Shown one piece after another: positions 1,694 to 24,345 of a stretch of DNA of 64,000 bases. The notes under the pieces are model-generated. The model did not search any database. It saw only the letters and a program-made list of their open reading frames with translations, and was not told the origin of the DNA. How positions within the stretch are numbered: position 1 is the first letter of the stretch; each line of letters starts with the position of its first letter. Source of the DNA: an uncultured Acidobacteriaceae bacterium. Lineage in GTDB: Bacteria > Acidobacteriota > Terriglobia > Terriglobales > Acidobacteriaceae. The position numbers and the translations under genes were made by a program. Location: contig CAWDPH010000008.1 in NCBI GenBank assembly GCA_963804135.1, positions 87,741-151,740 on the forward strand, read 5' to 3'.

Positions 1694-2737
1694 ATGGAGA
1701 TCTCTGAAACACCCCGCGGGCATCACTGGTCGCTGACGCTGCTGGGCATCGGCTTGATCGTTCTGTTCGCCTACTACGGCGAATCGGTGCTGGCGGTGCT
1801 GTTCTTTGCCATTCTGCTGAGTTTTATGCTCTCTCCGGTGGTGCAGGCGCTGGAGTATCTGCATGTTCCGCGAGCTCTCGGGGCGCTGATCGGCGTGGCC
1901 GCGCTGCTGGCGGCGGTTTATGGCATCACGGCGGCGTCTTACAATCAAGCCGCTGTTTTCGCGGACAACGTTCCGAAGTATTCGCAGAAAATCCGCTCCA
2001 TCCTGCAGCCCTTCCGGCAGCAGGCGGAGAACCTTGAAAAAACGGGCGAGGCGGTTGGGGAGCCCGAGCCCTCGAATGTGGTGCCGGTGCGGCAGGTGAA
2101 GAGCTGGACCGACGTGCTCACCCACGGAGCCGGCACTTTGACCGACATCCTGCTGTCAGCGTCGTTCATCCCGTTCCTGGCTTATTTTCTGCTGACCTGG
2201 CAGAGCCACGCGCGGTCGGCCACGGTAATGCTGTTTCCTTTGCGTCACCGGAACACGGTTTTCGTGACCTTGGGGCTGATCGGGAAGATGTTGCAGAGTT
2301 TCATTGTGGGGAACCTGCTGATCGGGCTGCTGATGTCGGGCGTGAGCGTGGCGATTTTCGGGTTGCTGCACGTCCCCTTCTTCTACTTCGTCGGCTTTCT
2401 CAGCGGCTTTCTGAGCCTGGTTCCGTACCTCGGAATCGTGCTGGCGATGGTGCCGCCGATCCTGGTCGGCCTGGGGCAACTGGATGCGGGAGACTTGGCG
2501 ATAGTGGTGCTTTGCGTGATCGGGCTGCATCTTTTCGCGCTGAATGTTCTCTATCCCAAGCTGCTGGGAAACCGCCTGAGACTCAATCCGCTGGCAGTCA
2601 CGATCGCGTTGCTGTTCTGGGGAGCGGTCTGGGGCGCCATCGGATTGGTGCTCGCCATTCCGATCACGGGCGCGATCAAGATTGTGTTCGACCACGTCGA
2701 GTCGATGAAGCCGTATGCGGATTGGCTGGGCGAGTAG
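1694..2737 (+). CDS. AI-2E family transporter (PerM/UPF0118 permease)
   Basis: 347 aa polytopic membrane protein. Overall layout and the C-terminal LAIPITGAIKIV segment are typical of the family. Confidence 0.85.
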   Translation: MEISETPRGHHWSLTLLGIGLIVLFAYYGESVLAVLFFAILLSFMLSPVVQALEYLHVPRALGALIGVAALLAAVYGITAASYNQAAVFADNVPKYSQKIRSILQPFRQQAENLEKTGEAVGEPEPSNVVPVRQVKSWTDVLTHGAGTLTDILLSASFIPFLAYFLLTWQSHARSATVMLFPLRHRNTVFVTLGLIGKMLQSFIVGNLLIGLLMSGVSVAIFGLLHVPFFYFVGFLSGFLSLVPYLGIVLAMVPPILVGLGQLDAGDLAIVVLCVIGLHLFALNVLYPKLLGNRLRLNPLAVTIALLFWGAVWGAIGLVLAIPITGAIKIVFDHVESMKPYADWLGE

Positions 2738-2744
2738 AGATCTT

Positions 2745-2775
2745 TTCACCGCGGAGACGCAGGGAGCGCCGAGAG
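2745..2775. repeat. Solitary family-D repeat arm (TTCACCGCGGAGACGCAGGGAGCGCCGAGAG)
   Basis: Same word structure as the arms at 35124, 40536, 42049 and 49936. I found no convincing partner arm. Confidence 0.6.
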
Positions 2776-3001
2776 CATCTCTTTGGAATCTCGAAACCTG
2801 TATCCCTTTTTCACGAGGAAACAACGACGGAGCGACTGACTCTAAATCGGTCTTTTGGGTTTCGCCGGGGTTTTCAACGGACTGTGGAAACTGCCTGTTG
2901 ATAACGCTGGTATTCGGTCCTTGACGATGGTGTGGATGGTAGATAAATATGTACACGTATCAAAAATCCCACAACTTTCGAGTCGAAGGAGTCCGCTCCA
3001 C

Positions 3002-3217
3002 ATGCCCAGCGTCTTCGTGGTACCGGTGTACGTCGAGGTGTCCAGTGGGTTCGAGCGTGCGATTGATACGTTAGAATTTTATCTGCGCCGAGCGGGGTAT
3101 GTGTTCCATACTGGCAAGCCCTTAGCGGAAGACTTGGAAGACATAAAGGCCAGGCTCAGCGACGGCACTCAAGAGGTTGATAGTGAGCACCCCGGAGGAA
3201 GAGCGTTTTCTGCTTGA
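3002..3217 (+). CDS. hypothetical 71-aa protein (first ORF of islet operon)
   Basis: ATG at 3002 preceded by AAGGAG (about 10 nt upstream). The longer track ORF from 2855 has no signal. No recognisable motif. Overlaps the next ORF by 35 nt. Confidence 0.35.
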   Translation: MPSVFVVPVYVEVSSGFERAIDTLEFYLRRAGYVFHTGKPLAEDLEDIKARLSDGTQEVDSEHPGGRAFSA

Positions 3218-3401
3218 ATGTTGGGCGCAGAATGTATGCTCACAATGTTCCAAGCAAATCCCAGAGGGCAAGCGTGTCGGCAGTGGCAAGAAGAGCGATG
3301 GCGGCTTTTGCTCCCTTGACTGCTATGGCGAATACCACAAGAAAAGGCTGGTAGAAAAACATAAGAATCTCAGGGACGAAGAGCAGCGTCGTAATAATTG
3401 A
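3183..3401 (+). CDS. small zinc-ribbon protein, CxxC...FCSxxC (FCS/TRASH-like)
   Basis: GTG at 3183 with AAGAGG 6 nt upstream (TTG at 3177 also possible). CSQC...GGFCSLDC cysteine pairs, basic C-terminal tail. Confidence 0.5.
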   Translation: MSTPEEERFLLECWAQNVCSQCSKQIPEGKRVGSGKKSDGGFCSLDCYGEYHKKRLVEKHKNLRDEEQRRNN

Positions 3402-3422
3402 ACGCGAAGGGCAGGACTCGAA

Positions 3423-4637
3423 TTGGACAACGTAGAACGATCATTGTTTCCAGAGATATACGACAAACGGGTTGGGAACGGGATTTTGCCATGGCAACAG
3501 ATCAGGCGGATGGTGGAGACCGGCCGGATAAGCGCGAGCCCAGAAGTGTCGGACTCTCAGCTCCAACCGGCGAGCCTGGATCTGCGCCTAGGCCGCGAGG
3601 CTTATCGCGTTGAAGCGAGTTTCCTCCGTGGCCGCTCGGCCACTCTTCTTACAAAGGTGCATGAGTTGCTCCACTCCACAATTGACCTCACCCAGCCAAC
3701 ACCGCCTTTGCTGGAACCCCGCGTCGTGTACATAATCCCGCTGCTCGAACGACTCAAGCTCCCAAACGATATTCAGGGCGTCGCCAACCCGAGGAGCACA
3801 ACTGGACGTCTTGACATATTTACGCGATTAATCACCGAGTTCGGTGATGAGTTTGACCACGTTGAGAAGGGGTACTCTGGCCAACTCTATGTAGAAGTTT
3901 CTTCCAGAACGTTTCCGATCCGTCTGAGGGCTGGGATGAAGCTCAACCAACTACGCTTTGTGCGTGGCACTTCAGCCAGGCTGGGTACCGGGAATCTGAG
4001 AGAGCTGGCGAAAGAGCAGCGCCTTGTCTACGATGCCGAAGGCAGCCCCGCGAAGAATCACGTCGGCGACGGCGTGGAGATCACGGTAGATCTAGAGGGC
4101 GACAACCGCTCAAGTATCGTCGCCTATAAAGCCAAAGGATCTGATCGGGAGATAGAACTGGACAAAATCGATTACTACGACCCAGCGGATTTCTGGGAGG
4201 CAATCCCAAGGCCCGGCAATGGCCGCATTGTTCTCGATGCTGGCGGTTTCTATCTATTAGCCTCGAAGAAGAGGGTGCGCATCCCTCTCGATCATGCGGC
4301 GGAAATGGTCGCGCATGACCCTAGCATGGGAGAATTTCGCGTTCACTACGCCGGATTCTTCGACCCCGGCTTTGGATATGGGGCCAATGGGGAAATTCCG
4401 GGAACGAAGGCGGTGCTGGAAGTCAGGGCATACGAGGTACCGATGCTGCTAGAGGACGAGGATCTAGTCGGCAGACTGCACTACTACCCGATGGCAGCTA
4501 TCCCGGATAGAGTATATGGCCTTTCAATAGGTTCTTCGTATCAGCAGCAATGGCTTGCTCTCAGCAAGCAATTCAAGCGCCCCGAGGCGCAGCGAGATCG
4601 CATGTCGGGCCCTGCTCCCAGCCTAGCCACAGCTTGA
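3423..4637 (+). CDS. 2'-deoxycytidine 5'-triphosphate deaminase, long two-domain form (Pfam DCD / PF06559-like)
   Basis: TTG start with GGCAGGA upstream. First half has [28 protein letters not shown] and GQLYVEVSSRTFPIRLRAGMKLNQLRF. Second half has EFRVHYAGFFDPGFGYG and AVLEVRAYEVP. These match my recollection of the long DCD family. Confidence 0.85.
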   Translation: MDNVERSLFPEIYDKRVGNGILPWQQIRRMVETGRISASPEVSDSQLQPASLDLRLGREAYRVEASFLRGRSATLLTKVHELLHSTIDLTQPTPPLLEPRVVYIIPLLERLKLPNDIQGVANPRSTTGRLDIFTRLITEFGDEFDHVEKGYSGQLYVEVSSRTFPIRLRAGMKLNQLRFVRGTSARLGTGNLRELAKEQRLVYDAEGSPAKNHVGDGVEITVDLEGDNRSSIVAYKAKGSDREIELDKIDYYDPADFWEAIPRPGNGRIVLDAGGFYLLASKKRVRIPLDHAAEMVAHDPSMGEFRVHYAGFFDPGFGYGANGEIPGTKAVLEVRAYEVPMLLEDEDLVGRLHYYPMAAIPDRVYGLSIGSSYQQQWLALSKQFKRPEAQRDRMSGPAPSLATA

Positions 4638-4775
4638 CCCTGTCGGCCTTGCGGCGCTATCCCAAGTGGTTTGCGGCTGTCCGTGTGCACTTCCGCTGCC
4701 GGTTGAAGCAGATGCTCCTCCCACGATCGAGAGCAACTGTCGCTCTTCAGACTCAAGCATCAGTTTGTCAGACCC

Positions 4776-5411
4776 TCAGCGGGCAAGGAGGCGCGTCAGC
4801 AGTGCGCCTATTATGGAGCCTAGCAGGGCCGACAAAAAAGCCAGGAGGCCGGGCCTAGCGTTTATTCGGTCCAATAGCCGCCAGAACCGCCCGACGCCGG
4901 CGGGGCCCTCAATTTTCTTGCCGGGGCCTGTGTAGGGGATAACCCCCAGGCCAACTTTATGCACGACAAGGGCGCAGAACTTTTGCCCCTGCTTCAGGGT
5001 CTTCTCCTTCATGCCTAAATTAAACAACGTGACCACGAGATGATCGTGATATCCAGGGTCAATCTTCGAGAGCGTGTTAGAAACGCCGTCTTGTAAAAGC
5101 CCCACCTTGGGCACAATGTACCCGAGCATCGACTGAGGCAGCCAGACCTGCTCCTCGGTTTCGATCAAGATTGCGCCACCAGGCAGCAGAGTAATCTCTC
5201 CCCCTTCGCGCAGAGTCCACCGTTCCGAATCCCGGTGGTCTTTGTACGCCCGACCTATTCGCAGGTCATAGGTCGCGTTAGGCTGCTCTCCTTGTAGTTG
5301 GCTCTTGTCCAGGTTGAGGATCAGCATGGCGCTGCCCTTAGGGTCGAACTGATCTTCTCTGGCTACAACGGTAGGATTGGTTCCGTCCGTCACGAAGGGA
5401 ATCACCGACAT
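4776..5411 (-). CDS. Dcd/dUTPase-fold protein with C-terminal transmembrane anchor
   Basis: ATYDLRIG, LLPGGAILIETEEQVWLP and KIDPGYHDHLVVTLFNLG match Dcd/dUTPase barrel motifs. The protein ends in the hydrophobic helix LLAFLSALLGSIIGALLTRLL. ATG at 5411 has GAGG 7 nt upstream; ATG at 5417 is the alternative. Confidence 0.7.
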   Translation of the reverse strand: MSVIPFVTDGTNPTVVAREDQFDPKGSAMLILNLDKSQLQGEQPNATYDLRIGRAYKDHRDSERWTLREGGEITLLPGGAILIETEEQVWLPQSMLGYIVPKVGLLQDGVSNTLSKIDPGYHDHLVVTLFNLGMKEKTLKQGQKFCALVVHKVGLGVIPYTGPGKKIEGPAGVGRFWRLLDRINARPGLLAFLSALLGSIIGALLTRLLAR

Positions 5412-5460
5412 TGGCATACCTCATGCGCTAACTGCTAAGAACAGAGAAGTTTCGCGTCTC

Positions 5461-5488
5461 ATTATATTCGGGGACCGCCAATAAACAA
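5461..5488 (-). promoter_or_regulatory. candidate sigma70-type promoter of the 4776-5411 gene (TTGTTT-16 nt-TATAAT on minus strand)
   Basis: Reverse complement of 5461-5466 is TATAAT and of 5483-5488 is TTGTTT, about 45 nt upstream of the start codon. Confidence 0.4.
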
Positions 5489-5521
5489 GGGGAGTTTTAC
5501 ACGGTTCCCTCCGGGCGTTCC

Positions 5522-6589
5522 GTGCGCAGAGCCCTTAAGCGTTACTCTCGGAAGCTTCCCCTCCGCCCGGGTCTGTTGCATTCTTTGGAGAGCCTCTACA
5601 CTGGAATCTTGCGCACCCTGATCAAACTGTTCTTGGTTGTCGTTCTCGCCGTCGTCGGCTGGGCGGCTTGGCAGGTCTATGCGCCGGTCACGCCTCCAGC
5701 CAATACTTCTCTGCTGCTGCATTCCGGGTATTCGACGCGGCGCATCGCGGCCGAGTTGAAGAAGGCGGGCGTGATTCGCAGCGAACTGGCGTTCCGGCTC
5801 TGGCACGCGTGGCATCGCAAGCCATCGTTGAAGGCGGGCGAGTATCTTTTCGAGCGCGCGGCTACTCTTCCACAAGTTCACGAGCGGATCGGGCGGGGCG
5901 ATATCTACTTCCACACCGTCACCATTCCCGAGGGCTATACGGTGTTCGATATTGCCAAGGCGATGGAGGACGCGGGGCTTGGATCGGCGGCGGATTTTGT
6001 GCAGGTTGCCGAAACTCAGACCCAGTTGATTTCGGATTTGGCGCCGGACGCCAAGTCGCTGGAGGGGTATCTCTTCCCCAACACCTACGAGTTCACGCGG
6101 ACCGAGACTCTGGAAGAAATGGCGGCGACGATGGTCCATCAGTTCCGGCAGGTGGCGCAGCAGATTGGGCTGAACTCGGACGTCCCGCGGATCGTGACCA
6201 TGGCTTCAATCGTTGAAAAAGAGACTGCGGCTCCGGAGGAACGGCCCCGCGTGGCCAGCGTGTACTACAACCGGTTGGCGCAAAGGATGGCGCTCGACGC
6301 CGATCCGAGCGTGATCTACGCCGAGCAACTGACGGGCACGTATTCGGGAAGCCTGCATCACGCCGACTTGTCCGTGAAATCGCCCTACAACACCTATCGT
6401 TTCCCAGGGCTGCCACCCGGACCTATCGCGAATCCAGGAAGAGGCGCTCTCGAAGCGGCGCTGCATCCCGACAGCACAAAGTTTCTTTATTTTGTTAGCG
6501 ATGGCAACGGGCGCCACCGCTTCGCCTGCAGCCTGGAAGAGCACAATCGGAACGTGGTCGCCTATCGGCGCGCACTTGGGCTGCGGTAA
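5522..6589 (+). CDS. mltG: endolytic murein transglycosylase MltG (YceG-like)
   Basis: 355 aa with an N-terminal TM helix. GEY, TIPEG, LEGYLFPNTYEF, ASIVEKE, YNTYRFPGLPPGPIANPG motifs. Confidence 0.9.
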   Translation: MRRALKRYSRKLPLRPGLLHSLESLYTGILRTLIKLFLVVVLAVVGWAAWQVYAPVTPPANTSLLLHSGYSTRRIAAELKKAGVIRSELAFRLWHAWHRKPSLKAGEYLFERAATLPQVHERIGRGDIYFHTVTIPEGYTVFDIAKAMEDAGLGSAADFVQVAETQTQLISDLAPDAKSLEGYLFPNTYEFTRTETLEEMAATMVHQFRQVAQQIGLNSDVPRIVTMASIVEKETAAPEERPRVASVYYNRLAQRMALDADPSVIYAEQLTGTYSGSLHHADLSVKSPYNTYRFPGLPPGPIANPGRGALEAALHPDSTKFLYFVSDGNGRHRFACSLEEHNRNVVAYRRALGLR

Positions 6590-6699
6590 ACAGCTAGTCA
6601 GCGGTACGACTGAAGCGGGCCACGGAACGAGTCGGATGTTCCGACGCCCAGCCCCTAACACGCTGCGGAAAAACCCACCGAGCGCGCAAGAAGCTCACC

Positions 6700-6863
6700 T
6701 CCGGCGCTGAAGCGCGACACATTTTTAAGGACTTAACGGCACGAGTAAACTCGTGCCCTTCCCAAAACCTGCTTGAAATGGAGTTTTTCCGCAGCCTGCT
6801 TAAAGGGGCGTCTGATTTTGAAGACCTTAGCGGGATCGCCAAAGCGATACCCTGATACGAAGC
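6700..6863. repeat. Family-A repeat cluster
   Basis: ACGGCACGAGTAAACTCGTGCCCTTCCC (6735-6763) and CGGGATCGCCAAAGCGATACCCTGATACGAAGC (6831-6863) parallel the two modules at 784-951. Confidence 0.65.
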
Positions 6864-6954
6864 CAGAGTGTTTCCTGCTGAGCGCTGAACCGTTTGCTGC
6901 CTTATACTAATCAGATACCCAAGTAGCGAAAGGTTCTCAGGTACTGGCATAGGA

Positions 6955-7890
6955 ATGTATCGTCCTCATCTGCGCTTGCTTTGTCTATTATTTCTGACGG
7001 CGGCTACTTTCCCGCTGAGCGGGTGTCTGTTCCGGACGCGTACTCTGGACCGTCAGTTCTCCAACCAGCCGCTGAAGACGGCGACCCAGCAGGATCTGAT
7101 CGAATACGTCAACACGCAGGCTGCCAAGATTCAGTCGATGCAGGCGACTGTGGATATTGACGCTTCGGTTGGGGACACGAAGAACGGCCGCATCACCGAT
7201 TACAAAGAGATTCGGGGTTACGTGCTGGCGCGCAAGCCCGCCATGCTCCGCATGAAGGGCCTGCTGCCGCTGGTGCGAAACACGGCTTTCGATATGGTGA
7301 GCGACGGGCAGGAATTCAAGCTCTGGATTCCTCCGAAGAACAAGTTCTTCGTGGGCCAGGACGATGGCGACAACTACCAGCCCGACAAGCGGCTGGAGAA
7401 CATGCGGCCCCAGTACATTTACGAAGCGCTGCTGATACCGGAAATCGGGCGGGACGAGATTGCGGTAATGGAAAACGGCTATGAAACCGTGTTGGACGCG
7501 AAGAAGCATCGGGTCGAGCAGCCGAATTACGCTCTGGCCGTCATCCGCAAGGGGCCCCAGGGTTGGTATTTGTGGCGCAAGATCGAGTTCAGCCGAACTG
7601 ACCTGCTGCCGCGCCGGCAAAGGATCTACGACCAGCAGGGAAACGTCGCGACCGACGCTCACTACCACGACTACAAAGACTACGCGGGGATTGCATTCCC
7701 AAGTACGATTGAGATCGAGCGGCCGCGGGAGGATTACGACATCATCCTCAGCATGGTCAAGCTGGAAATCAATCGCGCGCTGACCGACGATCAGTTCGCG
7801 CTGGAGCAGCCGCCGGGAGCCGAGGTGGTGCACCTCGATTCCTCCAACACCAGGGCGGCGGCGAAAGGGTCGGAAAGCCACCGGAGGTAG
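6955..7890 (+). CDS. lipoprotein, putative LolA-like / outer-membrane lipoprotein-sorting fold
   Basis: Signal peptide with lipobox FPLSGC. Function inferred only from size and adjacency to an FtsX-type permease. Confidence 0.45.
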   Translation: MYRPHLRLLCLLFLTAATFPLSGCLFRTRTLDRQFSNQPLKTATQQDLIEYVNTQAAKIQSMQATVDIDASVGDTKNGRITDYKEIRGYVLARKPAMLRMKGLLPLVRNTAFDMVSDGQEFKLWIPPKNKFFVGQDDGDNYQPDKRLENMRPQYIYEALLIPEIGRDEIAVMENGYETVLDAKKHRVEQPNYALAVIRKGPQGWYLWRKIEFSRTDLLPRRQRIYDQQGNVATDAHYHDYKDYAGIAFPSTIEIERPREDYDIILSMVKLEINRALTDDQFALEQPPGAEVVHLDSSNTRAAAKGSESHRR

Positions 7891-7905
7891 TTCTCCAGAA
7901 AAAGC

Positions 7906-9012
7906 ATGATGAATCGCATGATCGTCGGGAATTTGGTGCATCGGCCGGTACGCTCGCTGATCAGCATTGTGGCGGTGGCGCTGGAAGTCGCGATGATTCT
8001 GCTGATTGTCGGGTTCTCGCTGGGGATGCTGCAAGACTCACGCACGCGGACTGCGGGCATCGGGGCGGATGTGATCGTGCTGCCCCCGGGATCGTCTTTC
8101 ATCGCCGGGCTGACCGGCAGCCCGATGCCGATCAAGGTGGCCGGCGTTCTGGCCAAACTGCCGCACGTGGAACATGTCGCTCCGGTGATCACGCAGGTCT
8201 CGACCTCCGGCGCGCTGGAGATCATCGCCGGAATCGATCTGCCGAGTTACGAGAGCATGTCGGGCGGCTTTCACTATCTGAAGGGCGGTCCGTTCCAGGG
8301 GCCGAATGATGTGCTGGTCGACGATTTGTTTGCCCAGTCCAAGCACTCCAAAGTCGGCGACACGATCGAGATCCTCAATAACCCGTTCCACATCTGCGGC
8401 ATTGTCGAACGCGGCAAGGGTGGACGAAAATTCCTTCCCCTGAGCACCTTGCAGGATCTGACCGGCGGCAAGGATAAGGCCTCGGTCATGTACCTCAAGC
8501 TCGACGATCCCGCGAACGCGGATGCGGTGGTGGACGAGATCAAGCAGGTGCCGGGGATGGAACGCTACGTCGCCAGTTCGATGGCCACCTATCTTTCGAT
8601 GATGACCCCGACTCACATTCCCGGCCTTTCGACCTTTATCGATGTGGTGATCGGGATTGCGGTGGTCATCGGGGTCCTGGTGATTTTTCAGGCGATGTAT
8701 ACGGCGGTGATGGAGCGGACGCGCGAAATCGGCATTCTGAAATCGATGGGCGCGTCGAAGCCCTATATCGTAAACGTAGTGCTGCGGGAAACGGCGCTGC
8801 TGGCGGTGGGAGGCATCCTGCTGGGCATCGTCGCGAGCGTGGTGGCCCGGAGCCTGATTCATAATCGGCTGCCCCTCACGCCCATGGTACTGGCCGGGGC
8901 ATGGGTTGCGCGGGCTGCCTTGATTGCTCTGGCCAGCGCGGTCGCCGGTGCGCTGTATCCGGCGTTCAAGGCGGCGCAGAAGGATCCCATCGACGCGCTG
9001 GCTTACGAGTAG
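7906..9012 (+). CDS. ABC transporter permease, MacB/LolC/FtsX family
   Basis: 368 aa. N-terminal TM, large periplasmic domain, C-terminal FtsX-type TM bundle (REIGILKSMGASK motif). Confidence 0.85.
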   Translation: MMNRMIVGNLVHRPVRSLISIVAVALEVAMILLIVGFSLGMLQDSRTRTAGIGADVIVLPPGSSFIAGLTGSPMPIKVAGVLAKLPHVEHVAPVITQVSTSGALEIIAGIDLPSYESMSGGFHYLKGGPFQGPNDVLVDDLFAQSKHSKVGDTIEILNNPFHICGIVERGKGGRKFLPLSTLQDLTGGKDKASVMYLKLDDPANADAVVDEIKQVPGMERYVASSMATYLSMMTPTHIPGLSTFIDVVIGIAVVIGVLVIFQAMYTAVMERTREIGILKSMGASKPYIVNVVLRETALLAVGGILLGIVASVVARSLIHNRLPLTPMVLAGAWVARAALIALASAVAGALYPAFKAAQKDPIDALAYE

Positions 9013-9131
9013 GGGGCGCCACTCTTCGTTTTCGCTTTCAATTCGCCCCATGGGTAGGGGCTCTTTCCTCTCTAATAATTTTGCTCGCAAATCGGCAGAG
9101 AATGCACGATACTGCCGGTGAAACTGCGCCG

Positions 9132-9140
9132 TGCTATAAT
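9132..9140 (+). promoter_or_regulatory. extended -10 promoter element TGCTATAAT upstream of the H1-like gene
   Basis: TGnTATAAT at 9132-9140, about 105 nt upstream of the ATG at 9246. No good -35, as expected for extended -10 promoters. Confidence 0.4.
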
Positions 9141-9245
9141 CGCGCGCCGGTACGCAGAAACAGTGCAGTTTCGCAGCCGGTTGTCCTAATTCCCTGGCCC
9201 TGCTCGCGAATGCGCGCGGGTGACCGCAAATACGCAGGAGGAGAT

Positions 9246-9680
9246 ATGCGCTTCGATGATCCGACTCTGTATGGTCGGGACGATGAGACGGATGAGTTCA
9301 GCGACAGCGGCGCCTATGGCGAATCGCTGGAAGAAGATCTAGACGAAGAAGAAGAAGAGGAAGAAGAACCAGCCCTGGTGGAGGAAGACGACGAACTTCC
9401 CGCGCCTTTGGTACGGGAGCCCGTGGCAACACCCGCACCCGTAACTCCGTCGGGCGGCGGCGGCCAGGGTGGGCCGCCTAAGAAGAAGGCGCCTGCCAAG
9501 AAAGCCCCCGTCAAGAAGGCTCCTGCCAAGAAAAAGGCGGCAAAGAAGCCGGCCAAGAAAGCGGCCAAAAAGCCGGCCGCCAAGAAAAAGGCCAAACCCG
9601 CGAAGAAGAAAAAAGCGGCGAAGAAGCCGGCCCGGAAAGCGGCAAAGAAGAAAGGCACCCGCAAGAAAGGCCGCCGTTAA
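9246..9680 (+). CDS. histone H1-like Lys/Ala/Pro-rich DNA-binding protein with acidic N-terminal half
   Basis: ATG at 9246 with AGGAGGAG upstream; the 5' part of the track ORF from 8901 overlaps the permease. Poly-Glu block followed by KKAPAKKAPVKKAPAKKKAAKKPAKKAAKK repeats. Confidence 0.7.
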   Translation: MRFDDPTLYGRDDETDEFSDSGAYGESLEEDLDEEEEEEEEPALVEEDDELPAPLVREPVATPAPVTPSGGGGQGGPPKKKAPAKKAPVKKAPAKKKAAKKPAKKAAKKPAAKKKAKPAKKKKAAKKPARKAAKKKGTRKKGRR

Positions 9681-9703
9681 CGACTCACGCTAGCCACTAA
9701 AAT

Positions 9704-9731
9704 GATGGCGGAAGCTCGGGCTTCCGCCATC
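9704..9731. terminator. intrinsic terminator hairpin between convergent genes
   Basis: Perfect 12-bp stem GATGGCGGAAGC/GCTTCCGCCATC with loop TCGG. On the minus strand it is followed directly by ATTTTAG (good for the RidA gene). On the plus strand the T-run is 7 nt away (weaker). Confidence 0.65.
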
Positions 9732-9735
9732 TCAC

Positions 9736-10131
9736 TCATTTTTCTTCTTGCACGATCGCTTCCGCTTCGATCTCCACCAGCATTTCTGGAGACACCAGCG
9801 CCGTGATCGCCATCATGGCGCTCGCGGGACGAATGTCGCGGAAGAACTCGCCGTGCGCTTTTCCAACTTTTTCCCAATCCGCAATGTTGGTAAGGAACAC
9901 GCGCGTGCGTACCACATCTTTCAGGGAAGCTCCGGCACGCTCCAGCGCGCGTTCAATGTTGTTGATGGTCTGAACGGCTTGCGCGTACGCATCGCCTGTA
10001 CCGACGAGTTTTCCGTCGACGCCAGTTGCGGTTGTGCCTGCAACATGAATGTGTGCACCGACACGAACCGCACGGGAGTAACCGACGATCGGCTCCCACG
10101 GCGTTCCGGTTGAAATGTTGATTCGCTCCAC
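9736..10131 (-). CDS. RidA/YjgF/TdcF-family (Rid) protein
   Basis: GTG at 10131 with GGAGG 4 nt upstream gives about 131 aa ([22 protein letters not shown]...). The longer ORF to 10263 adds a non-homologous extension. Confidence 0.85.
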
Positions 10132-10396: not shown

Positions 10397-10951
10397 ATGG
10401 AGATTCCGGAGACGCATCCGCTACAGCAGTTGTTTGTTGAACTGGTCGGACGCCACTATGCCCAGGAGATTGGAATTCGCGATCCGCAAGTGGTGAGTTA
10501 TGTCGCGCATCTGCTGTCGGAGTTTTGCGATGCCGAGCAGTTGTTGAAAATTCGCAATGCGGCCGGGAAGCCCCTGAACGATGTGGGCGAGATGCTGATC
10601 GAGTCGGACCCGATCTACGGCCCGGCGCCCTCGTTCGACCGCGAGCGCCAGGTGCGCAAGCATATCGGCGACTTTACGCTGTTCTACGCCGGCATGTTTC
10701 CGGAGAGCATCAACCACTATCGCCTGCGCCGCCAGCGCGTGGAAAATTTCGTGGATTGGGTGAAAGCGGGCAAAGAAAGCTACTACATCGTCTCCAAGTT
10801 CGAAGACTTCGAATACGCCAAGGTGGCGCCGCTGTTCGCGCAACTGTCGCAGAGATTCGAGCAGTGCGTGTATGGACTGAACCTGGTGAAGAACGAGCTT
10901 GAAGTGATGCAGCACCCGATCGCGCGGAGAACGAACGAATTGCTGATGTAG
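10397..10951 (+). CDS. conserved hypothetical protein
   Basis: 184 aa with AAGGAAG upstream and coding-like composition. No motif I can name. Confidence 0.55.
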   Translation: MEIPETHPLQQLFVELVGRHYAQEIGIRDPQVVSYVAHLLSEFCDAEQLLKIRNAAGKPLNDVGEMLIESDPIYGPAPSFDRERQVRKHIGDFTLFYAGMFPESINHYRLRRQRVENFVDWVKAGKESYYIVSKFEDFEYAKVAPLFAQLSQRFEQCVYGLNLVKNELEVMQHPIARRTNELLM

Positions 10952-10953
10952 GA

Positions 10954-11440
10954 GAAGTCAGAAGTCAGAAGTCAGATTGAAGAAGTAAAACCCTTTGCCG
11001 TTCGGACGGACGCTACAAAGATAGCTACCAGTTCCTTGGCCTCCTGAACTATTTCTTGCAACTTTGCCTCGGGGAAGATTCCAGCATCCCGCATCACCTC
11101 CAACCAGAACGCTGTTTCGTCGGCTTCTTCCAGTACAATACCGAGTTTCGCGACGAATTCCGCACGAGAGCGGGCTCGGCAAGCGGCGCGGTAGTTAGCC
11201 CCAATCGAAGTACCCGAGCGAAGGAGTTGCTTACCTAATATTCGAGCCTCATCAGTCTTGGGCAGCGAGCGAAATAGTTTGATGATGCGTAGTGCAAAGT
11301 TTCTTGTCCGCTCCTGCAGTTTCTCAAAGTGTTCCACCCCTGAGATCTAACGCCTGCCCCGCTCAATTCGCAGCGACTCTTCGCACACTCAAATTGGTCG
11401 GTTTTACTTCTTCAATTTGAGTTCTGACTTTTGACTTTTC
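10954..11440. mobile_element. Inverted-repeat-flanked cassette carrying the four-helix-bundle gene
   Basis: Left arm is GAAGTCAGAAGTCAGAAGTCAGATTGAAGAAGTAAAAC (10954-10991). The right arm (11401-11440) reverse-complements to GAAAAGTCAAAAGTCAGAACTCAAATTGAAGAAGTAAAAC. Inserted between convergent genes. Confidence 0.55.
10972..11337 (-). CDS. four-helix-bundle protein (TIGR02436 family; former 23S rRNA intervening-sequence protein)
   Basis: 121 aa. LLRSGTSIGANYRAACRARSRAEFVAKLGIVLEEADETAFWLEV is the family signature. Confidence 0.85.
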   Translation of the reverse strand: MEHFEKLQERTRNFALRIIKLFRSLPKTDEARILGKQLLRSGTSIGANYRAACRARSRAEFVAKLGIVLEEADETAFWLEVMRDAGIFPEAKLQEIVQEAKELVAIFVASVRTAKGFTSSI

Positions 11441-12033
11441 ACCATTCGCCGGCCGGCGATTTCGAAGTTTCCTTCCAACACAATCCTGATCGCCTCCGTG
11501 TAAGCAATGTGTTCCTGCTCAAGAATTCGCGCCGCCAGCGTGTGCTCGTCATCGGAGTCCAGCACAGGGACAGTTTTCTGCACAACGATGGCGCCGTGAT
11601 CGAGTTCTTCGTCCACAAAATGCACCGTGCAGCCGGACACTCTTACGCCATAGGCGAAGGCCTGCTGCTGGGCTTCGAGTCCCGGGAAGGATGGCAGTAA
11701 GGACGGATGGATATTGAGAATTTTCGCCGGGAACTGCCGCACGAACCAGGGCGAGAGCAGGCGCATGTAACCGGCGAGGCAGATGAGATCGACTTTGTTG
11801 TCCAGAAGCGCAGCCACAACTTCGCGGTCGTGCTGCTCGCGCGGCTTGTTTTTCGATGCAATGACGAGCGCGTTGAGCCCTCGCTGGCGAGCGGTTTCGA
11901 CGCCGAGAGCATCGGCACGGTTCGAAATCACGACCGCGATGCGGGTGTCGGGTATCCGGCCAGCCGCAATGCTGTCGGCGATGGCCACAAAGTTCGAGCC
12001 GCGTCCGGAAAGCAGAATGCCGAGGTTTTTCAT
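11404..12033 (-). CDS. purN: phosphoribosylglycinamide formyltransferase
   Basis: MKNLGILLSGRGSNF start (ATG at 12033; the track start at 12042 is TTG). NIHPSLLPSFPG motif. The last ~11 codons (KSQKSELKLKK) lie in the repeat arm. Confidence 0.9.
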   Translation of the reverse strand: MKNLGILLSGRGSNFVAIADSIAAGRIPDTRIAVVISNRADALGVETARQRGLNALVIASKNKPREQHDREVVAALLDNKVDLICLAGYMRLLSPWFVRQFPAKILNIHPSLLPSFPGLEAQQQAFAYGVRVSGCTVHFVDEELDHGAIVVQKTVPVLDSDDEHTLAARILEQEHIAYTEAIRIVLEGNFEIAGRRMVKSQKSELKLKK

Positions 12034-16915: not shown

Positions 16916-18943
<2,028 letters not shown>

Positions 18944-18951
18944 GCGCAGCC

Positions 18952-20751
18952 TCAGAAGGTTTTCCCTGCCATCATCAGCAGGTGTTCAAGTATCGGTCCT
19001 AAACTCAGGGCCGGGAAAAATGTCAGCGCTCCCACGATCACGATCACCGACACCAGCAGAACGGTAAACAGGGGCGTAGTCACCGGGAACGTGCCCGCCG
19101 AAGCGGGCACCGCCCTCTTTTTCGCCAGATTGCCGGCAATCGCGAGCATGGGGATGATCATGAAGAATCGCCCCACCAGCATCGTCATCGCACCTGCGTT
19201 GTTATACCAAAGCGTGTTGCCGTTTATGCCGCCGAACGCGGAGCCATTGTTCCCTGCCGACGACGTAAACAAGTAGAGGATTTGGGTCAAGCCGTGTGGA
19301 CCCGCATTGCTGATGCTCGAGGTGCCAAATCCCTCGACCGATGAAATGCCCGTGAGCACTAGAATGATCAGCGGGAAAACCAGGGTGACCAGCATCGCCA
19401 TCTTCACGTCATAGGCTTCAATCTTCTTGCCCAGATATTCCGGCGTTCGCCCGACCATAAGTCCGGCGATGAACACCGACAGCACCACATAAATCAGAAT
19501 GCCGTACAGGCCAGCGCCCACTCCTCCGAAAACGGTTTCGCTGAGCATGATGTTGACCAGCGGCACCATTCCGCCCAGCGGAGTAAACGAATCGTGTTGG
19601 CCGTTAATGGCGCCACAACTCGCGTCGGTGGTGATGGTGGCAAACAACGCGGAGTTGGCGATGCCAAAGCGCACTTCCTTGCCTTCCATGTTGCCGCCCG
19701 GCTGCATCGCGGTGGCGTGGTGGTCGACTCCGTGCAGCAGAGGATTGCCTCGGGACTCGGCCCAGTAAGCCGTCGTAACCCCGCACAGGAACAGAATCGC
19801 CATCGCCGCCCAGACCGCCCAGCCGTGACGCTGCGACTTAGTCATTCGGCCCAGCGTATACGTGAGACCTGCCGGGATCGCGAAGATGGAAAGCATTTGC
19901 AGAAGGTTGCTGAGCGGTGTGGGATTCTCAAAGGGATGGGCGCTGTTGGCGTTGAAAAATCCGCCGCCATTCGTGCCCAGCATCTTGATCGCCTCTTGAG
20001 AAGCAACCGGTCCTTGTGCGATGGTCTGATCGGTCACGGTGTCCATCACCGCTTTGCCGTCCGGCCCAACCATCGGCTTGCCGTCGGTTCCCGTCTTCTG
20101 GACCTGTTGCGGCTCGATCAGTTTGGCCGTGTCGTACGGCTTGAGGTTTTGCACGACTCCCTGCGAAACCAGGAGCAGGGCATAGACGATGCAGGCAGGC
20201 AACAGTACCCATAGGGTGGAACGGGTCATGTCGACCCAGAAGTTTCCGATGGTTTCTTTTTCCTTGCGCGCGATGCCGCGAATGAACGCGATCGCCAGCG
20301 CGATCCCGACGGCCGCCGACGCAAAATTGTGGTAAGCCAGGCCAGCCATCTGTGTGAGATAGCTCATGGTCGACTCGCCCGAATAGTTCTGCCAATTGGT
20401 GTTCGTCGTGAACGACGCGGCGGTGTTAAAGGCCAGCGCTGGAGGGACGGCGGCAAACTTCTGCGGGTTCCACCATGGCAGTAAATGCTGCGCGCGCTCC
20501 AGCAGATAGAGCAGCAGCATGGAAGCGCCGCTGAACAGCAGCATGGTGACGGCGTATTCCGTCCAGCGCATCTCGCGTTCCTCATCGACGCCGGTGACGC
20601 GGTAAAGCAACCGTTCGATCGGACGGACCAAGGGGTCGAGAAAAGTGCGTTCCCGGTTGAACACTTTCGCCATGTACACGCCGAGCGGCTTCGTGATCGC
20701 CAGAATCAGAGCTAGAAATACGCCGATCTGTATCCAGCCATTGGTTGTCAT
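18952..20751 (-). CDS. kdpA: potassium-transporting ATPase subunit A
   Basis: 599 aa polytopic protein. [16 protein letters not shown] start and [20 protein letters not shown] selectivity-filter region. Confidence 0.97.
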
Positions 20752-20752
20752 T

Positions 20753-20842
20753 TCAGAATTTCTCCGGTCTTAGCAACGCGTACAGGAGGTAGACCATCAA
20801 TCCTGCACTTACAATCAGCATAATGATCGATTCAGCATTCAT
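20753..20842 (-). CDS. kdpF: potassium-transporting ATPase subunit F (29 aa, not in ORF track)
   Basis: Hand translation gives [29 protein letters not shown]. The stop is 1 nt before the kdpA ATG. The YALLRPEKF ending is typical of KdpF. Confidence 0.8.
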
Positions 20843-20869
20843 AATTGATTTGCCTCAGGCCATTTATCC

Positions 20870-20956
20870 TCAGCGAATTCGATCGCAGAACTGCACATAA
20901 CCCAGCGACAGCAGGAAGAACGCTATCGCGACCACGACAAAGATCAGGTCTTGCAC
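20870..20956 (-). CDS. 28-aa hydrophobic micropeptide upstream of kdpF (not in ORF track)
   Basis: GTG at 20956 preceded by GGAGGAGG (4-nt spacer). Translation is VQDLIFVVVAIAFFLLSLGYVQFCDRIR, a single TM helix. Confidence 0.45.
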   Translation of the reverse strand: MQDLIFVVVAIAFFLLSLGYVQFCDRIR

Positions 20957-20994
20957 GGAACCTCCTCCAAATGTGGACTACCTTCTTGTCACAA

Positions 20995-22770
20995 TCAGAA
21001 TTTCACCATGATGTCGATGTCGACCAGCGACTCGTCCCTGCGAAGATCAGGGAACCATACGGTGCTGCCTTGTGCCCCGCAGGCCGTTTGCGCGCCGCTG
21101 AGGGTCATGGACATGGACGAATTTCCGTCGTTGCAAGCGAAAAATTGGGGATACCCGTTGTTGGTATAGGGCACTCCACCAGAACCGGGCGGCGTAACTC
21201 CGCCGCGACCCGTCCAATACGGCACGTTCGCGTGGCGATAGTCGTACTCCCAGCGGAACGTGAGCCACTGCCTGGGCATGTAATCGTAGGTTACCGACAC
21301 ATCCCAGGCCTTGAATGGATCGCCGGGGTTCCCGGTAAAATAGGGGGCGTTGATCGCCGCGGAGGGTGCAGTCTCGCCGTTGATAGGCGGGAGCAGGACC
21401 AGATAGCGTCCCGGATTGTTAATCTGGCCGCCTCCTATGGTTAGTCCGTATGTATCCTTCTTGAACCAGGCGCGGTTATAAAGCATGTAGCCGACAAAGC
21501 TCTGCTTGGGACCGCCCGAAGTATTCCCGTGGCAGCTCACCCCGCCGCCAAATTCGCAACCCAGATCGCCAGTGAAGGAAAACGCCATCTTGTCGAGGCG
21601 GTTTCCCGGTTTGTCGTAATACTTGATCTCGATACTGTCGTCGGTGTGGATGCGGCCGCGCTTCGGTATGTATAAGTCGTCGTGGCCAAGGCCGTAATTG
21701 TTGGAGATGATGTTCATCCAGGGTCTCGGGGTCCACTTGATCTGCCCACCCACGCCCTTCCTCGAATTGGCAGAGCCATACGATTGCCATCCATTGATGA
21801 GCCATGGCTCGATCTTCAAGTGGGGGGTGGGGAAGATCTGCACTCGCAAGCCTTCGAAAAACCAGGGTGTATTGGAGGAAACGTACGAAGGCTGGTAGGC
21901 CCAGTTGTCGAAGTTGTAATAGCTGAACAGGCCGATGTACGACATGAAAATTCCCGCGTCAATGTTGATCCCGTTCAACGCGTTAATGTGATAGCCGCCG
22001 TACGCTTCCGACAAGTAACGGTCCGCATCGTTGACTGTCCATTGCCCCTTGGCGTAGCTGGGGTCATTGCGCACCGTCGCCGTGGAGTACATACCAAACT
22101 GAGTCATAAATCTGGCGCGCACGTTGTCGTAATGGAAGTCGCCGCCGATGCCGAGCTGCTCCAACTGCATTTCGTTGGCGCGAAAGATTTCGCTCGACCC
22201 GCCTATCGAGTTGTCGACTGGCTTGTTGAAATCATAGTTGTAGGTAATATCGGCACGAATTTCCGGGGTGAAGAATTTCGAGTCGAACGCCGTGTCTTTG
22301 TTGCGCGGGTTGCCGTTGAGCCAGGTCCAGTCCCAATCCGAAAAAGGCGCGATCTTTTCCTTCTTGGTGGACGCGTTGGACGGCGGTGCGGCCTCGGCGC
22401 CGCTCTGCGGTTGCGTGAGAGAGGGCTGCGCCAATAAAGCTGAAGTTAAGGGGACCGCGGGAACATTCGGCCCTTTCGATGCTGCTTCACTTCCTTCCGC
22501 TGTGGATGCCGGCCCTTGCTGCTCGTTTCGCTTTTGCAGTTGGGTTTCCAGTTGTGCGATCCGTGCCTTCATGGCTTCGAGTTCTTTCATGACGGCAGGT
22601 GGAATCGGTTGGTCTGACGTTCCCTCTTGGACGGCGGTGCCCCTTGTGTCAGAAGCGGTCTGCTGCCCGTGCATTGGAAGTGTTAACACCAACGCGCCCA
22701 GCGCCATCAGTAACATGCGCTTCCCTATCGTTTTGCCCATGCTCTTGTCTCGAGTCGTTCCTGGATTCAT
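20995..22770 (-). CDS. putative outer-membrane beta-barrel porin co-oriented upstream of kdpFABC
   Basis: Signal peptide (KRMLLMALGALVLTLPMHG), coiled-coil segment (MKELEAMKARIAQLETQLQK), then an aromatic-rich alternating region ending ...DIDIMVKF (terminal Phe). Start uncertain: 22770 has GGAGA upstream; 22740 also possible. Confidence 0.6.
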   Translation of the reverse strand: MNPGTTRDKSMGKTIGKRMLLMALGALVLTLPMHGQQTASDTRGTAVQEGTSDQPIPPAVMKELEAMKARIAQLETQLQKRNEQQGPASTAEGSEAASKGPNVPAVPLTSALLAQPSLTQPQSGAEAAPPSNASTKKEKIAPFSDWDWTWLNGNPRNKDTAFDSKFFTPEIRADITYNYDFNKPVDNSIGGSSEIFRANEMQLEQLGIGGDFHYDNVRARFMTQFGMYSTATVRNDPSYAKGQWTVNDADRYLSEAYGGYHINALNGINIDAGIFMSYIGLFSYYNFDNWAYQPSYVSSNTPWFFEGLRVQIFPTPHLKIEPWLINGWQSYGSANSRKGVGGQIKWTPRPWMNIISNNYGLGHDDLYIPKRGRIHTDDSIEIKYYDKPGNRLDKMAFSFTGDLGCEFGGGVSCHGNTSGGPKQSFVGYMLYNRAWFKKDTYGLTIGGGQINNPGRYLVLLPPINGETAPSAAINAPYFTGNPGDPFKAWDVSVTYDYMPRQWLTFRWEYDYRHANVPYWTGRGGVTPPGSGGVPYTNNGYPQFFACNDGNSSMSMTLSGAQTACGAQGSTVWFPDLRRDESLVDIDIMVKF

Positions 22771-23147
22771 AAAGATCAGTTCTCCACGTCGCCTGGCCGG
22801 TCCGCCTCGCAGTCGAGCAGCGTTCCCCCCACGTGGCCGGAGTTGCCGGTTCTCTCGGATAAGCGCCGCCAGGAACCACAACAAAAAGGCCACAGCCAGC
22901 GCAATCAACGTGAGCAAGAAATAAATCATTCCGGTGCACTCGGAGGCGGCTTCCGTGCCATCTCGATTAGATTCAGGGCGCCGTAAGAGGGGAGTAAGGA
23001 GTTCGTAAGGAAGTCATAAAGAAAAGTGCCACGTGAACGGTATTGTCGGCTCGGCAGAAGTGGAACGGGGCATCTTTGCAAACAATTTATGAACCCTTTA
23101 TTCAAAATTTGCGGGTTTGTGAATCCGATGATGTGGGGAGGAAAGAC

Positions 23148-23561
23148 ATGACAAACACACATCACATCTTCGGACGGCTCACTACCTTAACTGCTGTCTG
23201 GCTGGTTTTGGCCGCCTGCACTGCGGCGGTCCCTGCGGTTGGACAGGCTTCGACCCACCTCAGCAAGAAGGAACTGAAAGCGCTATCGGCGTCGCCCGCA
23301 GGTCAGGAACGGTTGGCAGCGTACTACCGGGATAAAGCCCAACATCTGAGGGCGAAGGCAGAGGAATTCTCGGCACAGGCGGACTATCTCGCGACGCAGC
23401 CTGCGACCGTTGAATCGAAGCAGGGCATTTCCTGCAACTGCACGAGCCACTACCGCTATTTTTCGAAGCTGTACGCTCAGGAAGCCAAGGATGCGGAGAC
23501 GCTGGCAGCGAAATACCACCAACTCGCGCAGGACTGGCAATCGAAAACGACCCAGCTGTAG
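23148..23561 (+). CDS. hypothetical secreted helical protein
   Basis: ATG at 23148 with GGGGAGGAAAG upstream. Signal peptide LTAVWLVLAACTAAVPAVGQA. No family recognised. Confidence 0.5.
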   Translation: MTNTHHIFGRLTTLTAVWLVLAACTAAVPAVGQASTHLSKKELKALSASPAGQERLAAYYRDKAQHLRAKAEEFSAQADYLATQPATVESKQGISCNCTSHYRYFSKLYAQEAKDAETLAAKYHQLAQDWQSKTTQL

Positions 23562-23647
23562 TTGAAGAGCCAACCACCCCAGCCGGCGAAAAGCGCGCGG
23601 TCTGGGGACCCCGGCGGGGGCGGCTGTCCCTCGCAAGTTTTCGCGGG

Positions 23648-24340
23648 TCAATCTCCGGGCTCGAAGCGGTAACCAACCCAGGGATCGGTCACGATGTATC
23701 GGGGGGAATTTGGCGAGGGCTCAAGCTTCTTGCGGAGCTGTGCCACGAACACGCGCAGATATTCAACCTGTTCTGTACTCGCACCACCCCACACGGCCGC
23801 GAGCAAGGCGCGATGGGTCACCACTTTGCCGGGGTGGCGGGCGAGATAGACGAGCAAGTCGAATTCTTTCGGCGTTAGGTGGACGGCACGGTCTTTCACT
23901 AAAACGCTGCGGGCTCCGGGATCGATCTTGAAGTCGCCCGCTTCGATCGGCCCGAGTTCCGACTCTTCCGTGCGCGAGCGGCGGAAACTGGCGCGGACGC
24001 GCGCCAGGAGTTCCTCCATGCCGAACGGCTTGGTGATGTAATCGTCGGCGCCCGCATCCAGCGCCTGAACCTTGGTGCGCTCTTCACCGCGCACCGAGAG
24101 CACGATGATGGGAATCTGCGTCTTCGTCCGCAGCCGCCGGCACAACTCCAGGCCGTCCATGTTGGGCATGGCGAGGTCGGTGATGACCATATCCGGCGAC
24201 CAGTCTTTCATGATCTCGAGCGCAGTCTCGCCGTCGTTGGCCACGCGAATGTCGTATCCGTGACTGGACAGAGAAGTCCGCAGCACCCGCGTGATCTGGG
24301 ATTCATCGTCGACGACCAGAATGTGTTTATGGTCGGGCAT
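23648..24340 (-). CDS. kdpE: OmpR-family response regulator KdpE
   Basis: Receiver domain plus winged helix. VLSVRGEERTKVQALDAGADDYITKPFGMEELLAR is KdpE-like. The ATG lies 5 nt after the stop of the kdpD N-terminal gene. Confidence 0.9.
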   Translation of the reverse strand: MPDHKHILVVDDESQITRVLRTSLSSHGYDIRVANDGETALEIMKDWSPDMVITDLAMPNMDGLELCRRLRTKTQIPIIVLSVRGEERTKVQALDAGADDYITKPFGMEELLARVRASFRRSRTEESELGPIEAGDFKIDPGARSVLVKDRAVHLTPKEFDLLVYLARHPGKVVTHRALLAAVWGGASTEQVEYLRVFVAQLRKKLEPSPNSPRYIVTDPWVGYRFEPGD

Positions 24341-24345
24341 GACGA

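Follow-up and report, generated by a model that had tools for sequence, protein, structure and literature searches.

What are two genes of the Dcd/dUTPase superfamily doing next to each other in a short interval between a transporter gene and mltG? The question is raised by a 64,000-nucleotide stretch of DNA (the window) from an uncultured Acidobacteriaceae bacterium (assembly GCA_963804135.1, contig CAWDPH010000008.1), in which a block of four genes, designated here orf71, Zn72, DCD and TM211, separates perM from mltG. DCD has the sequence of a two-domain dCTP deaminase, and TM211 is a protein of 211 amino acids (aa) with a Dcd/dUTPase fold and a predicted C-terminal membrane anchor. The explanation we favour, and to which we give an even chance of being correct, is that the block is a copy of a horizontally mobile cassette for the conversion of dCTP to dUTP and then to dUMP; the dUTP would be dealt with by TM211, which is probably a divergent dUTPase. 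The analysis took the 64-kb window of the source genome as its sequence basis, and comparisons were made with metagenomic loci and with one genome per GTDB species. The features of the interval, in window coordinates, are the following.

1694..2737, + strand: perM (AI-2E family transporter), left flank of the variable interval; Pfam PF01594, 145 bits
2799..5508, no strand: variable segment, an insert relative to empty-site relatives; nucleotide homology breaks at its borders
3002..3217, + strand: orf71, small conserved protein, first gene of the operon; ATG start with a GAAGGAG ribosome-binding site upstream
3183..3401, + strand: Zn72, 72-aa protein with a C4 zinc finger of the FCS/TRASH type, then a long basic helix; conserved Cys pattern
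3423..4637, + strand: DCD, putative two-domain 2'-deoxycytidine 5'-triphosphate deaminase, 404 aa; assigned from Pfam, NCBIfam and PDB 2R9Q
4638..4775, no strand: spacer between the convergent DCD and TM211, 138 nucleotides (nt)
4776..5411, - strand: TM211, tail-anchored Dcd/dUTPase-fold protein, 211 aa, candidate divergent dUTPase; Pfam, AlphaFold2 (AF2), Foldseek
5522..6589, + strand: mltG (YceG), right flank; Pfam PF02618, 276 bits

The four genes between perM and mltG are real, and the open reading frames (ORFs) proved to be as the original prediction, made from the DNA letters, had described them: a zinc-ribbon protein, a two-domain DCD and a convergent Dcd/dUTPase-fold protein of about 210 aa among them. 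The start of Zn72 overlaps orf71 by 35 nt, DCD starts 21 nt after Zn72, and TM211 is convergent with DCD; a promoter/terminator scan detected no consensus terminator in the 138-nt spacer between the latter two. Judged by the family N-terminus MSVIP, the 213-aa ORF from position 5417 begins two codons early, giving TM211 its length of 211 aa. The further 71-aa ORF listed at 3398–3613 lies within DCD and is no more than a shadow ORF.

The perM–mltG interval is a variable site

Using mltG as an anchor, 80 related metagenomic loci were collected, in which mltG is 78–96% identical and perM 82–98% identical. The gap between the two genes is only about 100–150 bp in many of these relatives, which hence represent the empty site, and unrelated inserts of 0.45–7.7 kb occupy it in others. 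The closest relatives carry a CPBP-type protease at this position; further cargo includes an M13 peptidase, a permease with a nitrilase, a glycosyltransferase/radical-SAM cluster, a Ser/Thr kinase and an HD/SAMHD1-like protein. In six relatives the interval holds TM211, Zn72 and DCD as co-directional genes in this order, with about 50% protein identity to the genes of the window. Nucleotide homology to the relatives ends at window positions ~2735–2798 and restarts at ~5509–5593. By position, the block is an accessory, variable insert. The original prediction had called it an accessory islet, and the comparison of the interval in relatives bears this out, the site being empty, otherwise filled or occupied by a divergent form of the module.

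One of the relatives, L098, has at positions 6015–7385 of its locus a gene for a 456-aa protein with HD and HD_assoc_2 domains and a SAMHD1-like N-terminal motif. The insert is low in guanine + cytosine (GC; 51.5% vs 57.1%), and its cargo, which takes the place held by the DCD module in the window, is another enzyme of the type that acts on deoxynucleoside triphosphate (dNTP) pools.

The module occurs at several loci in Acidobacteriaceae

The same module was found at other loci in other Acidobacteriaceae. In other Terriglobales-type genomes orf71-Zn72-DCD lies within a conserved tmk-holB-hfq ... HU-rseP-priA neighbourhood (the hfq-HU locus), lacking TM211 in L063–L066 and with TM211 between DCD and HU in L005, L014 and L047. 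The DCD proteins at this locus share only 51–62% identity in genomes that agree to 84–92% in tmk, holB and priA; DCD is swapped between close relatives as a divergent cassette, by repeated allele replacement. The rseP gene of the locus is mosaic too (63–81% identity). HU is also among the well-kept genes here, tmk, holB, priA and HU being 84–100% identical across L005, L047, L064 and L065. The DCD of the window is 90–93% identical to that of L005, L065 and L066. The hfq-HU locus itself, looked for in the window as a possible place of a second dcd, is not part of the 64 kb. Further contexts include an amino-acid permease with EF-G, and others, bringing the total to at least four loci within Acidobacteriaceae. 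The module moves between loci and between genomes.

Two further arrangements were observed. Two contigs of the metagenome-assembled genome (MAG) MFD02248.bin.2.114 (L041 and L057) each carry TM211-Zn72-DCD between unrelated flanks, with about 92% aa identity in the DCD region (tblastx) and about 71% nt identity in TM211; either the genome has two copies, or the bin contains two strains. The order is DCD-TM211-Zn72 in a Candidatus Acidiferrales MAG (L061, 4151–6323), and the TM211 match is split between two frames (5438–5716 and 5722–5952), a possible frameshift or pseudogene.

These comparisons bear on the plainest alternative, namely that the block consists of vertically inherited housekeeping dcd and dut genes that are adjacent by chance. 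The presence of orf71-Zn72-DCD in a conserved housekeeping neighbourhood in several relatives would agree with it, as would the content of the 64-kb window, in which no dcd or dut was found beyond the block. However, perM–mltG is empty or otherwise filled in most of the 80 relatives, the module has several addresses, TM211 varies in presence and is foreign in composition, and TM211 scores below the curated cut-offs of Dut and of Dcd alike, as given below. The interval comparison, the multiple loci and the composition largely refute this alternative, which we regard as highly improbable.

DCD and its small partners

DCD matched Pfam DCD_N (210.7 bits) and DCD_C (222.4 bits) and passed the NCBIfam equivalog NF005734 with 434.7 bits against a cut-off of 283. 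Its alignment with PDB 2R9Q (311 bits) covers both domains, residues 19–385 being matched to residues 10–368. These matches identify DCD as a two-domain dCTP deaminase, orthologous to 2R9Q, and we infer that it deaminates dCTP to dUTP. The likeness to the known family (PF06559 + PF22569, NF005734, PDB 2R9Q from Agrobacterium tumefaciens) extends over the full length. Unlike that family, the DCD of the window is preceded by orf71 and Zn72, small genes conserved only in Terriglobales-type Acidobacteria, and is subject to the cassette-like exchange between close relatives described above.

The N-terminal 54 aa of orf71 are 70–72% identical in L005, L006, L008, L047 and L063–L066, and in L014 the identity is 61% over 36 aa; the similarity holds even where DCD is only 51% identical. 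No match to orf71 was obtained in Pfam, NCBIfam or PADLOC. The Zn72 family comprises 84 clusters, the named matches being Terriglobales. Wherever Zn72 was detected in an Acidobacteriaceae module, the gene that immediately follows it is the two-domain DCD. Within the family C22, F42, C43 and C47 are invariant, C19 and S44 nearly so, and the core of the RVGSGKKSDGGFCSLDC motif is invariant; the pattern agrees with the zf-FCS/TRASH signature C-x2-C ... F-C-S-x2-C. The profile match is weaker: Pfam zf-FCS scored 15.7 bits, below the threshold of 22.4, with weak matches in 16 of 26 members, and DUF2116 was also below threshold. An AF2 model of Zn72 with a predicted local distance difference test score (pLDDT) of 87 gave eL24 and the TRASH domain of ZMYM5 as the best Foldseek matches, at E values of about 0.6–1.3, which are not significant. 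Zn72 and orf71 may be lineage-specific small partners of DCD, and a role in regulation or assembly would be a guess.

TM211 is a distinct tail-anchored member of the superfamily

TM211 scored 46 bits with Pfam DCD and 25.4 bits with Pfam dUTPase (threshold 22), the latter a marginal match over a partial stretch. It falls below the Dcd equivalog TIGR02274 (44.1 bits vs 92.8) and below the cut-offs for Dut (TIGR00576, 39 bits vs 102.55; NF001862, 31 bits vs 103). In the AF2 model (pLDDT 91.5) a linker connects a jelly-roll core with a helix of residues 187–210. The hydrophobic C-terminal helix noted in the original prediction is hence predicted with high confidence, and it is a family-wide trait: a hydrophobic C-terminal window is present in 158 of 161 full-length members. 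The family is a small one, with 109 clusters when grouped at 90% identity and, for E <= 1e-30, 117 when grouped at 50%. Its members, almost without exception, have lengths of 205–245 aa, and fusions to other domains do not occur among them.

The invariant elements of the family are YDLRxG, P-K-V, SNTxSKxDPGY, FNLG and one Cys, and of these SNTxSKxDPGY, the active-site hairpin, is the most conserved part. The positions of Ser111, Arg115 and Glu138 of Escherichia coli Dcd are occupied in TM211 by Val103 (invariant), Gln107 (in most members) and Thr128 (nearly invariant). Lacking the catalytic Ser, Arg and Glu of Dcd, TM211 therefore cannot, by its residues, be a deaminase, and the view that two dcd genes lie side by side has to be given up for the second protein. 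Motif III of Dut is retained, with Asn112, the catalytic Asp118 and the sugar-gating Tyr121 all invariant.

The best Foldseek matches of TM211 were the dUTPases of Thermococcus pacificus (8Y1W) and P45 (9LN3), the Bacillus halodurans DCD-DUT (4XJC) and E. coli Dcd, with a TM-score of about 0.7 on the target. By structure and profile together, the closest relatives are the archaeal Dcd-like dUTPases (9LN3, 8Y1W) and the DCD-DUT enzymes (4XJC, and those of Methanocaldococcus jannaschii and Mycobacterium tuberculosis). TM211 has the jelly-roll core of these enzymes together with their T-x-E and DPG(Y/W) motifs, and, like the archaeal dUTPases, it lacks the deaminase Glu. Unlike them and the DCD-DUT enzymes, it has P-K-V in place of R-S-S in the phosphate-binding motif and Gln in place of the next Arg, begins with MSVIP, ends in a C-terminal transmembrane (TM) helix, and is bacterial and horizontally mobile. 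Canonical trimeric Dut (PF00692, TIGR00576) belongs to the same superfamily, and TM211 keeps its motif-III Asp, Tyr and Asn and, in four loci of Alphaproteobacteria, takes up the position after coaBC that belongs to dut. TM211 differs in the missing motif-II Ser, motif-IV Arg/Gln and motif V, and in being membrane-anchored. A literature search for membrane-anchored dUTPases gave nothing relevant. What is new in the block is TM211, which forms a tail-anchored subfamily of its own with ties to dcd, dut and thyX.

A sister family (P0430–P0455) of Dcd-like proteins of 230–260 aa, with SKVS in place of RSS, was also observed. Its members have hydrophobic C-terminal segments, and membrane-anchored Dcd-like proteins therefore form a wider group.

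TM211 often adjoins dcd and has taken the place of dut in some bacteria

A scan of GTDB with one genome per species (~185,000 species) and two peptide patterns, which undercounts the family, returned 49 TM211 loci in Acidobacteriota, Cyanobacteria, Alphaproteobacteria, Bacilli, Archangium (Myxococcota) and Dehalococcoidia. A dcd gene directly adjoins TM211 in 39 of the 49 species and may be of the two-domain, the cyanobacterial single-domain or the E. coli-like type; about 10 arrangements of the two genes occur across Acidobacteriota, Cyanobacteria, Bacilli, Myxococcota and Dehalococcoidia. The gene thyX lies upstream of TM211 in 14 Nostocales loci, with a tight thyX-TM211-dcd array in L036. 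L056 has the order dut-ung-TM211, and L058 has dut, dcd and TM211 together. The canonical dut of L056, a Rhizobiaceae MAG (8666–9118), ends in ...ATEYGAKASPL* instead of motif V (RGxGGFGST), which suggests decay of dut after the arrival of TM211.

Four alphaproteobacterial loci (L018, L024, L042 and L045) have the order coaBC-TM211-moeB. The corresponding order is coaBC-dut-moeB in their close relatives L147 and L148, and L149 has dut after coaBC but moeB further on. The coaBC and moeB flanks are 84–91% identical up to the gene borders, and L042 retains a vestige of the dut start codons. In all four, TM211 has displaced dut precisely and in situ.

TM211 is AT-richer than its own locus in 47 of the 49 cases, by up to 0.31. 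The adjoining dcd has the same foreign composition, and native genes do not. In Alphaproteobacteria its GC fraction is 0.38–0.43 vs 0.65–0.71 for the locus; in Archangium the values are 0.69 for dut, 0.55 for dcd and 0.48 for TM211; and in Fischerella/Westiellopsis the E. coli-like dcd (0.35) and TM211 (0.34) lie next to a native dcd of 0.41. Nodosilinea and Halomicronema have, next to a full dcd of 0.40–0.43 and a TM211 of 0.38–0.39, the 3' remnant of a dcd with the native GC of 0.53. An AT-rich pair beside a dcd remnant of native composition therefore indicates that dcd and TM211 arrive through recombination within the dcd already present, which they are able to supplant. The contrast between a host-like remnant and an AT-rich full dcd and TM211 was seen in L051 and L052.

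A complete dcd on one side of TM211 and a partial 3' copy on the other, the two being 62–73% identical, were observed in Nodosilinea, Halomicronema and Leptolyngbya (L052, 9506–11359; L051, 9486–11367; L055, 6042–7856). In L018, L024 and L042 the divergence of TM211 is similar to that of the flanking DNA (L018 and L042 share ~81% nt identity), yet its GC is 38–43% in genomes of 65–71%, and this low GC looks maintained and not merely un-ameliorated.

Enzyme or sensor

The reading of TM211 as an enzyme rests on the displacement of dut and on the thyX-TM211-dcd array. Several observations weigh against it. TM211 lacks the motif-II Ser, having P-K-V in place of P-R-S; its motif-IV Arg/Gln positions are variable or Ala/Ser; and motif V (RGxxGFGS) is replaced by the linker and the TM helix. 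Given that canonical enzymes need these residues, catalysis is unproven, and TM211 could be a binder only. An intact trimeric dut stands beside TM211 in Archangium, and a dimeric dUTPase (PF08761) accompanies it in two Bacilli; TM211 coexists with other dUTPases in these three genomes and is therefore not always the sole dUTPase. In four loci TM211 occurs alone, with no dcd or dut nearby. On the deaminase side, a literature search on 2R9Q and the two-domain DCD family returned no relevant paper. The missing canonical residues and the coexistence with other dUTPases are the reasons for caution over the enzyme reading.

The main rival to that reading is a non-catalytic nucleotide sensor or regulator, a pseudoenzyme that would bind dUTP, dCTP or dTTP at the membrane and modulate or tether Dcd. 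The loss of the dUTPase motifs and of the Dcd catalytic triad alike, the bona fide dUTPases of Archangium and the two Bacilli and the tight linkage to dcd of any type are all as expected of such a protein. However, TM211 has taken exactly the position of dut between coaBC and moeB and has stayed there in several species, which is hard to explain if it had no dUTPase function; the partner Dcd proteins come from three unrelated subfamilies, which argues against a specific protein–protein fit; and it would be unusual for a dead enzyme to have its active-site hairpin as the most conserved part. We consider the sensor unlikely. A different kind of partnership, a pseudo-trimer made up of the two-domain DCD and TM211, was rejected, since TM211 pairs equally with single-domain Dcd types.

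Composition and sequence signals of the block

The block has a GC content of 55.0% vs 59.1% for the window, the lowest of any window of the same size and about 2.6 standard deviations under the mean, a minimum that is tied with the kdp region at ~20.4–23.5 kb. GC at third codon positions (GC3) is 0.60 for orf71, 0.56 for Zn72, 0.61 for DCD and 0.68 for TM211, compared with 0.715 +/- 0.053 for 46 genes of the window. The block is thus truly, if only moderately, low in GC, and within the source genome TM211 taken alone does not stand out. The description of the block as an AT-richer islet is borne out, and the underlying hand count of 26 G+C in 60 nt was correct (0.433). In every relative examined, at whatever locus, the module genes have a GC3 of 0.57–0.64 vs 0.65–0.79 in the flanks, and AT-richness is therefore a property of the module and not a sign of recent arrival here. 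The other region of about 55% GC (16916–25470) is an ordinary kdp cluster (kdpA, kdpB, a kdpD-like sensor and a response regulator) with a BBP2 beta-barrel porin.

The hexamers that had been singled out as promoter-like, TTGACG at 2921–2926 and TATAAT on the minus strand at 5461–5466, are both present, but promoter-like sites in the block are at chance level (1 observed vs 1.3 expected from shuffles). An Rfam scan of 2500–5700 matched no family. At the borders of the insert there were no notable direct, inverted or att-like repeats (short chance matches only), no integrase and no tRNA.

A role in defence

A defence role for the block had also been proposed, but the evidence gathered here does not support it. 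The four block proteins matched no family of PADLOC-DB 2.0 at E <= 0.1, and with PHROGs gave only generic phage dcd/dut families. No copy of TM211 was found in IMG/VR, phage and plasmid collections, which yielded only distant ordinary dcd/dut genes (<36% identity). In a PADLOC scan of 150 ORFs near TM211 in 18 loci (one locus incomplete), each family among the matches listed was represented by a single ORF, and these matches were mostly to cytosine-methyltransferase and PD-T4-6 models. TM211 and the module have no habitual location near defence genes and no defence-island context, their usual neighbours being housekeeping genes; restriction-type neighbours occur only in L016 and L054. In L054 (Vicinamibacterales, 6909–10067) TM211 lies near a C5 cytosine methyltransferase, which matches the methyltransferase models of PADLOC, and, as read from translations, a Vsr-like ORF and a DUF262-like protein; in L016 (Pyrinomonadaceae, 10824–11813) it is near a HARE-HTH + Mrr_cat endonuclease.

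The known defensive dCTP deaminase of the AvcD/DcdV type combines a zinc-dependent cytidine/cytosine deaminase domain with an N-terminal kinase or P-loop domain (bioRxiv 10.1101/2021.04.26.441389). It and the dGTPases act on the same metabolite pool as the block, whose DCD would lower dCTP by converting it to dUTP. Unlike AvcD/DcdV, the block proteins have neither a zinc deaminase nor a kinase domain, the Pfam domains found being of the dUTPase superfamily only, and they lack a PADLOC match. A dUTPase domain has been mentioned, unvalidated, among predicted defence genes (PMC13092281), and apart from this mention a literature search for defence by dUTPase-fold proteins gave nothing relevant.

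A conflict system, of defence or counter-defence, in which Dcd and TM211 edit the dCTP/dUTP pools during infection, or in which TM211 is a variant that escapes phage inhibitors, is nevertheless consistent with some of the data: the patchy distribution (49 of ~185,000 species by the pattern scan), the AT-richness relative to the locus in 47 of 49 hosts, the variable hotspot with its SAMHD1-like HD protein in one relative, the divergence of the DCD cassette amid well-conserved tmk, holB and priA, the two copies in one MAG, and the Mrr-type endonuclease of L016 and Dcm/Vsr/DUF262 genes of L054. Beyond the PADLOC results, the absence from viruses and plasmids and the housekeeping neighbours, it is opposed by the fact that a housekeeping dcd or dut is replaced, not added to, and by the lack of any abortive-infection-type effector domain beyond the single TM helix. 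Under such a system, horizontal transfer and diversifying selection would be consequences of the conflict. We judge such a system quite improbable. Equally doubtful is its more specific form, that TM211 is a membrane-tethered dUTPase escaping phage-encoded dUTPase inhibitors, or a dUTP/dCTP sensor-effector, and that AT-rich copies have repeatedly supplanted dcd and dut, as xenologues, in a phage arms race. If true, the race would be with phages that manipulate dCTP/dUTP, e.g. those with uracil-containing or modified-cytosine DNA; the defences known to deplete nucleotides would have in the cassette a counterpart with the dUTPase fold, and nucleotide-pool immunity would gain a new fold.

A proposed mobile cassette for dUTP handling

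We favour the mobile pool cassette. That the block is a dCTP/dUTP pool module, which was the core of the original prediction, is supported by the identity of DCD, the superfamily of TM211 and the linkage to dcd, dut and thyX. The orf71-Zn72-DCD operon would yield a two-domain dCTP deaminase, producing dUTP from dCTP, as family membership suggests. TM211 would be held at the inner face of the membrane by its C-terminal helix; the dUTPase-superfamily fold is trimeric in known members. TM211 would there most likely hydrolyse dUTP to dUMP for thymidylate synthesis, a function suggested by its fold, the retained nucleotide-binding residues and the genome context. The cassette would spread by recombination, landing beside a resident dcd or dut or replacing it, and in the source genome it would have come to lie within the perM–mltG recombination hotspot.

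In many prokaryotes none of the known dUTPase genes is present (Kerepesi et al., 2016; PMC5122711). A tail-anchored, motif-poor protein that is able to replace dut, such as TM211, would be a candidate for filling part of this gap. As a dUTPase, TM211 would show that dUTP clearance is possible without the canonical motif-II Ser and the motif-V arm. The block and its relatives also show that foreign cassettes take over from core dNTP enzymes (dcd, dut), by recombination at the gene already in place.

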